This document shows, piece by piece, positions 36,101 to 39,100 of a stretch of 64,000 nucleotides of DNA. Each line of letters starts with the position of its first letter. The stretch's first letter is position 1. Source of the DNA: an uncultured Candidatus Peribacteria bacterium (GTDB lineage Bacteria; Patescibacteriota; Gracilibacteria; RBG-16-42-10). The stretch spans positions 372,001-436,000 of the forward strand of contig CAZERA010000001.1 of assembly GCA_964514565.1 (NCBI GenBank), in the 5' to 3' direction. The position numbers are program-made.

Positions 36101-39100
36101 CCATTTGGTATGATCAACTCTTGATCAACTTTGAGCTCTTTGTCACTACTCAGATTGTTTTGATACATGACTAACTCAGGTGGTACATCATATATTCCTG
36201 AGATTAGGGCTATACTGTCACCTTTTTTTACTTTGTGAAGTAATCCTGTGACTGGTAAAATCTTTAATTTTTGACCTGGCTCCAAACTAGGATTTCTTTT
36301 GAGGTTGTTGACCTGGGTGATCGTGGAAGCGCTGATATGAAATTTTTCAGTCAAACTATCCAGTGTGTCACCGGACTGTACTACATAATTGATCACGTCA
36401 TTGATCACATCTCCACTATTGACCATCGGTTTGTCCATGAAAATATCGTCATTGCTGACGTATTCGCTTTCCATTGAGAAATCGGCTTTAGCCGTCATGA
36501 AATTGAATTGTTCGGTAGACAGTACTAAACTAATAATTACTACAAAAATAGCTTTTTTGAGTGTGCTGACGCGCTTTAAAGAAGCGTAATCAATCGATTT
36601 TTGGAAAAAATCTCTCACACTAGCTATCTCACCTCTATTTTCTTTGTTTACTCTGTACAAACTTAGTCTTCTTTTGATTTTGGATCGCAACTTTGTGCCA
36701 AATTCAAAAAATGTCAAAATATAAAATTAAGGCTAGGCCAATATAACAGAAAAGGTTCTTTTCGACTAGCGAGCGTATTCGATAATGCGAGTCTCACGCA
36801 CCACATTGACCTTGATCTCTCCACTAAAGTCGCTAATCTTTTCGATTTCAGCTGCCAAGTCATGAGCTAGTTTATATGCTTGCAAATCATCGATTTCAAT
36901 TGGGTTTACTATTGCCCGGATCTCATGGCCTGCTTGCATCACAAAGGCCTTTTCAACTCCAGGGAAGGCTAGAGCAGATTGTTCCAGGTTGGTCATGCGT
37001 TGAATATGTTGCTGGAGACTGTCACGTTTAGCGCCTGGACGTTCCTGTGATAATAAATTGGCTGTATAAACAATAATGCCTTCTAATGATTGGAATGGAG
37101 TCTGAGCATGGTGTGAAGAGATGGCCATAATTACTGGCTCGGCAATGCGATATTTTTTACATATCTCCAATCCGATATGTACATGATGGCCCTCAATCTC
37201 TTGGTCGAGTGATTTGCCAATGTCGTGTAACAAGCCAGCTTTTTTGGCAACATCAATATTTGCACCGAGTTCTGCAGCTATTGCAGCTGAGAGTTTTGCT
37301 ACTTCCACTACATGTTTCAAAACATTTTGACCGTATGCTGTACGAAAACGAAGACATCCAAGCAGCTTAATAATTTCTGCTGGTAGTCCGGTAATACCTA
37401 ATTCATATACAACTTTCTCACCAAATTCACGGGTCATCTTGGCTACTTCTTCACGGGCTTTGTCGAGCATTTCTTCGATCCGAGTAGGATGGATACGACC
37501 ATCAGCTACTAATCTTTCTAAAGCAATTTTGGCAATATAACGACGCATCAGATCAAAGCCGGAGAGAATAACTACTCCCGGACTATCATCAACAATTACA
37601 TCCACGCCACTCATTTTCTCAAAGGCATTGATATTTCTACCCTCTCTACCAATAATACGACCTTTCATTTCGTCGTTGGGCAAAGTCACCGTAGTCACTG
37701 TTGATTCAGCAATACTTTCACCATGATAACGTTGCATTGCTTCAGCTAATACATTGCGAATCTTCTCATCAGCATTGGTTTGTTGGTCTTTCACAATCTT
37801 TTCTAGATGTTGCATGATCTCTGGCTGATACATTTCCTCAATTTTGCTAAAAAGCATTTGTTTTGCTTCTGCTTCAGAAAGCGCTGAGATCTTTTGTAAG
37901 ATTTGTTCCGCTTCTTTTTGTTTGTCGTGAAGTTTTTGCTCTTCTGTTCGCAAGCTTTCTATTTCTTGGTCTAGTCGTTGTTGTGCTTGGGCTAGGCTTT
38001 GTTGTTTTTTTTCGATCTCATCTTCCTGTTTGTGGTTCTTTACCTCAATTTCTTGCAATTTTCGCTTGCGTTCTTGCTCTTCTTTTTGAATTTGTTGGAG
38101 CAATCTTTGGCTAGCTAGTTTTGCTTCAGCTAGGATGATTTTTTCTTCCTCCTGGGCTTTTTGGAGGGTGGTTTGTGCTTGATTTTCTAAAGAATTAACG
38201 CGCTTTTTAGCGACTAAAGTGTGATAAAGAGCGGTGAGTACTATTCCTACCAAAAATCCAGCTAGACTCCATATGATTATAAAGTTCGGCATAGTGAATA
38301 AAAGAATATAAGGACACTAAATCTACTTTATGAACCCTACTTCTTATTGTCAATCTTTACGGTGTGCGACCAGCTCTCCACCATTGAAAAATCTGCTTGG
38401 CTACTGGTACAGCAATGGCGCTACCTTCACCTCCACCTTCGATCATCACTGTCACTACTATCTCTGGATTATCAAAAGGAGCGAAGGCCGTAAACCAGGC
38501 ATGGACGCTTTGATTATTGTTGAATTGTGCTGTGCCAGTTTTGCCGCCAATTTTGAATGGTAAACTTTGTAAGGACTTGGCTGTACCTTTATCAGAATAG
38601 ATGGTCTCATACATTCCTTCCCGAATAGTCTGGATCGTGCCTGGTTGTAAAAAATCTTGTTGTAAAATTTGGGGATCTTTTTGTGAACTACCCGAACAAT
38701 TTTTAATTTCTTTGACTAAGTATGGTTGGTAGAGTTTACCTCCACTAGCTATCACACTGGTATAGCCAGCTACTTGGAGGGGAGTAGTCAGTAAGAAGCC
38801 TTGTCCTATTGCATAATTGTATGTGTCGCCAGTCAGCCAAGATTGTCCTATTTTTTCTTTTTTCCATTCAGGTGTAGGTACTAATCCAGGTTGTTCGCCG
38901 GGTAGGTCGATATTGAGCACCTTTCCTAAGCCAAACTTTGAGGCAAATTCACTGATCTTTTCTGCTCCTACTCCCACAAAACCTTGGAATCCACCACTCA
39001 CTTTGTAAAAGAAGGTGTCACTTGATACTGCTAATGCCTCAATAATAGAAATGGTTCCGTGGCCAGTTGGTTTCCAATCTTTATACACAAAGCTTTCCTG

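Follow-up and report, generated by a model that had tools for sequence, protein, structure and literature searches.

Two RNase Y paralogs with complementary residue loss in the Gracilibacteria: a putative enzyme/pseudoenzyme pair

The two RNase Y genes and their architecture

The analyzed window, i.e. 64,000 nucleotides of an uncultured Candidatus Peribacteria genome (G000; coordinates given without a contig name are window coordinates), carries on its reverse strand the rnyA gene (36766..38292), which encodes an RNase Y of 508 aa, henceforth copy A, a putative recognition subunit whose active site is degraded. The whole-protein score of A against the TIGR03319 (RNase Y) profile, 564.7 bits, lies above the curated cut-off of 454.35 bits. 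The N-terminal membrane anchor (residues ~5–27, identified from sequence and hydropathy; 38212..38280, reverse strand, as are all features of rnyA listed below) is followed by a coiled-coil stalk (residues 43–188, a spacing of 145; 37729..38166) and by a canonical KH domain (residues 198–265; 37498..37701), recognized by Pfam KH_1 and by a fold match to the KH domain of exosome Rrp4. The KH domain exhibits GRIIGREG at residue 211, with the GxxG loop G215-R-E-G218 (37639..37650), and a DGRIHP motif (residues 264–269; 37486..37503) follows the KH. Six of the seven HD ligands are kept, namely the first ligand H327 (37312..37314), the HD dyad H356-D357 (37222..37227), the second-metal ligand H370 (37183..37185) and both H394 and H395 (37108..37113), while N412, encoded by AAT (37057..37059), stands where the terminal Asp ligand belongs, and K422 (37027..37029) replaces the invariant Arg of RPGAR. 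In the C-terminal domain (residues 441–508; 36769..36972) the Arg of AGRE is gone (H456), and the last strand retains E500 and R502.

The sole other tblastn match in G000 is copy B, encoded by rnyB (514 aa; C1:145256-146800, reverse strand), which lies outside the window, ~263 kb from rnyA, and is 32% identical to copy A over 437 residues. Copy B reads RIVGDEQ at the KH loop, possesses ADAIS and retains all seven HD ligands intact. Its TIGR03319 score (316.2 bits) falls below the cut-off, yet the match is full-length and this family is still the best one for B. Pfam identifies RNase_Y_N and HD in both G000 copies and KH_1 in A only; PF12072, which covers the N-terminal anchor and the coiled coil, is above the Pfam cut-off in both, and at an E-value of 0.01 it matches 59/59 A and 56/59 B from the genomes with the pair. 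A hydropathy window of at least 1.5, indicative of a membrane anchor, is found in 69/71 A and 66/68 B. The AlphaFold models of A and B exhibit the same architecture, with long helices in both (pLDDT 77–78), and the fold search returned the Rrp4 KH as the top match for the KH domains of both copies (A: Z 11.6, rmsd 1.9, 81 aligned; B: Z 9.2, rmsd 2.6, 80 aligned). Hence, the KH fold is predicted to be intact in copy B. Neither the PDB sequence search nor the fold matches listed included a solved structure of RNase Y. RNase Y initiates mRNA decay in many bacteria; the genome of G000 (1.1 Mb, 93% complete) also encodes RNase J, PNPase and YmdB, and RNase E/G was looked for in this 93% complete assembly and not found.

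Distribution and ancestry of the pair

The occurrence of TGA-recoding families in the same class points to the Gracilibacteria of the Patescibacteria. In the class sample of 401 genomes, an RNase Y match at 1e-25 was found in 393. Both copies belong to 15 families (f1, f2, f8, f22, f25, f28, f29, f32, f33, f35–f40; 75 genomes): A and B occur together in 73 of the 75, A alone in two and B alone in none. Each of the remaining 318 genomes of the class with a match has a single RNase Y gene; five apparent two-gene genomes of the class outside the pair clade turned out to contain split or doubled single genes. In other classes, where 278/280 genomes have a match, the four double matches are split genes, not pairs. 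The first-pass annotation of this DNA had reported two copies across the order, which holds for 9/9 order genomes; the pattern extends beyond the order, both copies occurring in another 64 genomes from 13 other families, and an order-specific origin is thereby rejected. The pair is real, conserved and wider than the order. The A and B genes are adjacent in none of the genomes examined, being unlinked throughout, and no operon linkage between them was seen.

The two assemblies with A only, G014 (50 contigs) and G301 (100 contigs), are both devoid of the YtxH-like gene found next to B, on its downstream side, in congeneric genomes, which indicates that the whole B locus is absent, via either an assembly gap or a larger deletion. 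This disposes of an objection raised earlier, that a single-copy protein also has the Asn: the protein in question is the A copy of G014; B is present in both congeners of G014, and the neighbor gene of B is missing from the G014 assembly as well.

Phylogenetic analysis was carried out with the trait columns removed, with 13 outgroups from other classes and without one long single-copy sequence. A forms one clade (SH-aLRT 91) and B forms one clade (SH-aLRT 97), both within the class. The stem of B is long, and the best tree does not place B as the sister of A, but a single clade uniting A and B could not be rejected (p-AU 0.438). Some family groupings (f28 with f8, f25 with f33) recur in the A and B subtrees, i.e. 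the mirroring is partial. The simplest reading of these sequences would be one old duplication followed by co-inheritance, while B could also have been captured from another family of the class; the tree, in which B nests inside the class on its long stem, speaks against a source outside the class. Purifying selection on both copies, reported previously, was recovered: pN/pS is 0.098 for A and 0.142 for B in the G000/G005 comparison, in which pS is saturated (0.71 and 0.82, respectively), and dN/dS in the sole unsaturated genome pair is 0.019 for A and 0.060 for B.

Complementary loss of conserved residues

The residue-level comparison drew on 74 A and 70 B sequences together with 72 single-copy sequences (out of 318), with four B and one split A not included; for the HD count two A and two B were left out as incomplete (leaving 72 A and 68 B). 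All HD ligands are intact in 0/72 A, 68/68 B and 72/72 single-copy proteins. The KH signature G[KR][IVL]IG[KR][ED]GRN is present in 73/73 A, 0/69 B and 72/72 single-copy proteins; the GxxG loop is likewise found in 73/73 A, and the DGRIHP motif (as DGRI[HNQ]P) in 73/73 A and 0/69 B, with DGRIHP in 67/72 single-copy proteins. Column 412 is Asp in 68/68 B and 72/72 single-copy sequences; among the 72 A it is Asn in 67, Ser in two, and Val, Thr and Asp in one each, and the sole A with Asp412 has lost the HD dyad and the HH. Both Asn codons are in use (AAT in 42 and AAC in 24 of 71 full-length A). H327, H356, D357 and H370 are each held in at least 66/72 A, and H395 is kept in 34 and gone in 38. 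The Arg of PG[AVS]R (R422) is absent from all 72 A and present in 68/68 B, 72/72 single-copy proteins and, among the matches listed, 80/80 ordinary RNases Y from across phyla.

The division extends beyond the signature motifs. Among columns at least 85% conserved in the single-copy proteins, 33 are kept by A only, 17 of them in the KH domain, and seven by B only (T318, S319, H395, D412, A413, R422 and R456), all at or near the active site. Even the C-terminal domain is divided: R456 stays with B, and E500 and R502 stay with A, all three residues being invariant in 80/80 ordinary RNases Y of many phyla among the matches listed. In each of the 15 families, A retains E217, R219, D235, T237, DGRIHP, E500 and R502, whereas B has dropped them. 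In sum, A has lost the terminal Asp, the PGAR Arg and the T/S of RTSYGQ, often also the AGRE Arg and the HH, while B keeps every catalytic residue lost by A and is eroded in KH, DGRIHP and E500/R502. B also has conserved residues of its own (F231, N232, D365, L367 and K369).

Within the order, the features described for both copies were found again, with GR[IV]IGREG plus Asn412 in 8/8 full-length A and ADAIS in 7/7 full-length B. Measured against the features that define RNase Y, A lacks the full ligand set and B lacks both the KH signature and the cut-off score, while A and B together display every feature that could be tested. A division of labor between the copies is strongly supported by this complementary loss in 15 families, taken together with the single clade formed by each copy and their co-retention in 73/75 genomes.

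State of the two domains presumed to have decayed

The motif H..HD..H..HH..D defines dinuclear HD phosphodiesterases (according to the accessible text of PMC8177086); this seven-ligand set is complete in B and broken in A by N412. The same source describes Bd1817, which has Asn for the terminal Asp, binds two irons and is inactive (PMC8177086). Several A lineages have gone further and lost the HH, the HD dyad (replaced by HE, HA, YN or KF) or the first His, which is how a dead site would behave, and the A of G000 is therefore taken as dead as well; we infer that copy A does not cut RNA. Lacking conserved catalytic residues and yet being under purifying selection, A is a candidate pseudoenzyme. 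The retention of Asn and of four ligands in most A suggests that a structural metal or pocket has been kept there.

The KH domain of B is in a less uniform state. Its loop is GxxG in 35 of 69 B, GxxA in 19 and something else in 15; Pfam KH_1 matches 25/59 B compared with 59/59 A. Over the same 59 genomes the KH domain averages 79% identity among A but 37% among B (68% among the single-copy proteins), whereas the HD domain averages 63% among A and 54% among B, and the mean net charge of the KH is +2.8 in B and -2.6 in A. In KH domains, acidic loop residues are known to abolish RNA binding. Strict loss of the GxxG loop is typical of family f1 (7/7 B with the KH covered) and not of B generally, so the claim that B had lost its KH loop stands for that family and fails as a general statement, and the corollary that B had lost RNA binding is too strong outside f1. 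Given the GxxG in 35/69, the KH_1 matches in 25/59, the predicted intact fold and the basic KH, B may still bind RNA.

Do the two copies pair?

The coiled coil mediates dimerization of RNase Y, and the membrane attachment of an anchorless copy can be restored by an HD-dead one in S. aureus (both described in the accessible part of PMC4608709). In the dimer model proposed for B. subtilis, a parallel coiled coil is combined with paired last strands, and the KH domains and the last strands line a basic hole (PMC9775385, accessible part).

The length of the stalk turned out to be frozen in both copies. The spacing between residues 43 and 188 is 145 in 71/71 A and 66/68 B, the two exceptions being one B with a run of N and one longer by a single residue. 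On the tree this corresponds to no change in A and two in B, compared with 17 changes and nine lengths among the 72 single-copy proteins, at whose rate 9.4 changes would be expected for A and 21.8 for B; the comparison was devised after the data had been seen, and the lengths obtained for the single-copy proteins differ by a heptad from one alignment to another. B is not refractory to indels as such, since the KH and linker changed length 18 times in B and once each in A and in the single-copy proteins. A measure that depends little on the alignment, the distance from the center of the anchor to R188, has a standard deviation of 1.1 in A, 2.5 in B and 7.3 in the single-copy proteins. The distance from the anchor Gly to R188 is equal in A and B in 27/59 genomes and within one residue in 40/59; in family f25, B is 4–5 residues shorter between the anchor and the stalk. 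An indel in the stalk is symmetric and harmless in a homodimer and breaks the register in a heterodimer, so that a frozen length fits an in-register A:B coiled coil.

A complex of the soluble parts of A and B was modeled with paired alignments of 59 rows. At least 86% of contacts are shared between runs, with a partner pLDDT of at least 73. The score of 0.33, versus 0.00 for the best control, gives weak support and cannot tell a heterodimer from a homodimer, since a paralog is closely related to the true partner, and such relatives passed in 10/12 test pairs. The mark applied to this score was reached by 116/157 solved complexes and 2/215 mismatched pairs, and scores at 0.60 or under comprise only 18 of the 157 solved complexes but both mismatches.

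Two other approaches gave no signal of pairing. Stalk charge complementarity was rejected as evidence: in the ungapped register the g-e' class ranks 10/56, with A-B favored in 6/13 families, and the first pass, in which g-e' came first of 56 in favor of A-B, arose from a misplaced gap in B. Co-substitution of A and B stalk columns, evaluated on a shared tree with 58 pairs, gave a value matched by 3/40 control bands with full letters and by 21/40 with reduced letters. The g-e' self-pairing score averages -3.2 for AA, -3.5 for the single-copy proteins and +0.6 for BB; B is devoid of the acidic e94/e101 partners of K89/K96, for which E90/E97 may substitute. The heterodimer proposed in the first-pass annotation is thus plausible on account of the matched frozen stalk and the weak complex score, and it draws nothing from charge or covariation.

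A putative enzyme/pseudoenzyme heterodimer and its alternatives

The distribution of losses could be explained by the following scenario. A single duplication of an ancestral homodimeric RNase Y would have taken place early in the history of a clade comprising at least 15 families, and the duplicates would have become an A:B heterodimer with one working RNA path. The two subunits would pair through the parallel coiled coil as well as the C-terminal domain, and the KH of A would capture single-stranded RNA and present it in trans to the dinuclear HD site of B. If ordinary RNase Y dimers likewise operate by a hand-off in trans, with each KH delivering RNA to the HD of the opposite subunit, each copy would be free to lose the half serving the redundant path. 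Were each KH to feed the HD of its own chain, neither copy would have a complete path; were it to feed the HD of its partner, the A:B dimer would have exactly one, and the decayed halves would be those of the redundant one. We consider an enzyme/pseudoenzyme A:B heterodimer, in which the KH of A feeds the active site of B, to have a somewhat better than even chance of being correct. The fuller version, that the heterodimer has been obligate since one ancient duplication, hands RNA from the KH of A to the HD of B and reflects a trans mode of action of all RNase Y dimers, is a tentative proposal whose chances we place slightly below even. Several points count against the heterodimer with hand-off: the A of G000 still has six of its seven ligands, and the HD of A is better conserved overall than that of B (63% vs 54%); B may still bind RNA; the two genes are nowhere adjacent; B is not the sister of A in the best tree; and the published monomer model of RNase Y, with the KH and HD of one chain packed together (PMC9775385, accessible part), makes delivery in cis possible. 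The split need not be adaptive either, as drift alone can favor heterodimers after duplication (PMC11066126, accessible part).

Perhaps the copies form a heterodimer that involves no hand-off, with B binding and cutting RNA by means of its own remodeled KH and A serving as a structural or regulatory subunit that became indispensable possibly by a neutral route? The GxxG and basic KH in half of B and the B-specific residues would agree with it, as would simulations in which heterodimers tend to replace homodimers without any benefit (PMC11066126, accessible part), and the matched stalk and the weak complex score fit it equally. We nevertheless find it quite unlikely, because a mere scaffold has no need of an intact RNA-binding surface, and the KH of A is more conserved than that of the single-copy proteins (79% vs 68%, with only 37% in B), while the set comprising KH, DGRIHP, E500 and R502 is held in A and dropped in B throughout the 15 families. 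Two separate homodimers, with B as a free nuclease of relaxed RNA recognition and A as a non-cutting, membrane-bound RNA-binding or degradosome scaffold, would not require the genes to be linked, and they are unlinked in all genomes examined; A does keep conserved g-e' salt bridges suitable for self-pairing at nearly the single-copy level, the charge and covariation tests revealed no A-B pairing signal, and RNase J2 of S. epidermidis is mostly a monomer beside J1 (PMC7864078, accessible part). This arrangement also appears unlikely to us: it does not predict an exactly reciprocal loss that extends to individual residues within the C-terminal domain, it leaves the frozen stalks of A and of the otherwise indel-prone B at odds with the indels tolerated by the single-copy proteins (17 changes in 72), and it has to accommodate the loss of acidic e94/e101 from B, unless E90/E97 replace them. 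The least probable in our view is that A has remained an enzyme whose metal use or chemistry has changed, e.g. a one-metal phosphodiesterase acting on RNA 3' ends, with substrates other than those of B. The prevalence of Asn with both codons (67/72) and the retention of H327, H356, D357 and H370 speak for it, and at this same site the S. aureus RNase Y also acts as a 3' phosphodiesterase (PMC4608709, accessible part); but other A lineages lack the HH, the HD dyad or the first His, the PGAR Arg that is invariant in B and in the single-copy proteins is lost by all A, and Bd1817 with the same Asn and two bound irons is inactive (PMC8177086).

Should the heterodimer with hand-off in trans be correct, the pair would constitute a natural separation-of-function experiment on the trans action of all RNase Y dimers. 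The conserved split between recognition and cutting provides a residue-level map of the two RNase Y functions, in which the recognition set would comprise KH, DGRIHP, E500 and R502, and the catalytic set RTS, the seven ligands, R422 and R456; the latter would give a catalytic role to an Arg of the C-terminal domain hitherto without an assigned function. For B. subtilis, the prediction is that KH-dead and HD-dead RNase Y subunits complement each other. The pair would also represent an unusually clean case of two-sided subfunctionalization, retained in genomes of only ~1 Mb. According to the accessible part of a 2024 review (PMC11261784), a structural study of RNase Y KH bound to RNA was so far unreported.

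Relation to known systems

A search of the openly available literature (subscription titles being outside its scope) found no paired RNase Y paralogs. The closest relative is RNase Y (Rny/CvfA) of B. subtilis and S. aureus, with which A and B share the anchor, coiled coil, KH, HD and C-terminal domain; it differs in being the product of one gene that forms a self-dimer, whereas A and B are encoded by two unlinked genes and are complete in conserved residues only jointly. The archaeal exosome, with Rrp41/Rrp42 and the Rrp4 cap, likewise combines an active with an inactive paralog within a single RNase whose active site is fed by KH domains, but it is a phosphorolytic PH-fold ring with separate cap proteins, and its catalytic domain is unrelated to RNase Y. 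The substitution seen in A has a counterpart in Bd1817 of Bdellovibrio, an inactive HD-GYP protein (PDB 3TM8) with terminal Asp changed to Asn (PMC8177086), whose HD fold matches the B model (Z 8.0, rmsd 3.5, 110 aligned); Bd1817 is a homolog of c-di-GMP phosphodiesterases and not an RNase, and the accessible text describes no complementary partner for it (PMC8177086).

In organization the pair resembles RNases J1 and J2, paralogous ribonucleases that form one complex, known as a heteromer in B. subtilis (PMC7864078, accessible part), with a single active site, that of J1, working in vivo in S. aureus (PMC4608709, accessible part). RNases J1 and J2 have another fold, and, as far as the accessible sources go, J2 is still active by itself and J1 is complete as an enzyme; the loss in A and B, unlike that in J1/J2, is two-sided, and the A:B complex is putative. 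By analogy, the pair would work like RNase Y and be organized like the RNase J1/J2 complex, with the loss on both sides.

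Copy A and its genomic neighborhood

RNase Y copy A retains the KH signature with an incomplete set of HD ligands, and its most decayed versions are found at loci L233 (genome G364, family f38), L167 (G296, f36) and L190 (G249, f28), where the HD dyad is replaced by KF, YN and YN, respectively. All three have lost the HH metal ligands while their KH signature is intact, and they are the top candidates for a clean non-cutting subunit.

In the source genome, rnyA, which encodes copy A, lies in a same-strand run (window 35602-41640, minus strand) composed of mreC, a membrane gene without a Pfam match, PBP2, rnyA and a LysM/M23 peptidase gene, followed by gatCAB. 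A PBP gene upstream of copy A is common to 8 loci of this order. Outside the order, copy B is followed by a YtxH-like gene (51 loci) and copy A by groES-groEL (30 and 26 loci). According to the gene neighborhood, these partners are exchanged in the source genome compared with those loci: the YtxH-like gene (window 31721-31993, minus strand) is located about 4.8 kb downstream of copy A, and groESL (L001:4832-6877) about 1.4 kb from copy B. The swapped neighbors may be a trace of a single ancestral locus.

Copy B and other RNase Y proteins with altered KH signatures

Copy B (L014:1462-3003; sites of note: residues 364-365, 416-419 and 503-514) exhibits an Asp directly after the second-metal His, invariant in 68/68 sequences, as opposed to 1% of the RNase Y proteins from single-copy genomes. 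Members from f1, the family of the source genome, exhibit also a one-residue insertion within PGARHHE and a basic C-terminal tail, which might substitute for the lost RNA contacts.

Genome G392 (f35) carries an additional copy B (L214) on a 3.8-kb contig, G392:C16. Comparison of motifs revealed that it is alike to the f32 copy B of G336, and either misbinning or transfer could account for its presence.

Altered KH signatures combined with a full set of HD ligands were identified also in RNase Y representatives P0086, P0088, P0090, P0096, P0100, P0114, P0115, P0122, P0125, P0132, P0140 and P0142, in which KH erosion possibly arose independently. Several of these 12 differ from copy B, because they keep remnants resembling DGRIHP, the motif that follows KH in every copy A and is missing from every copy B.
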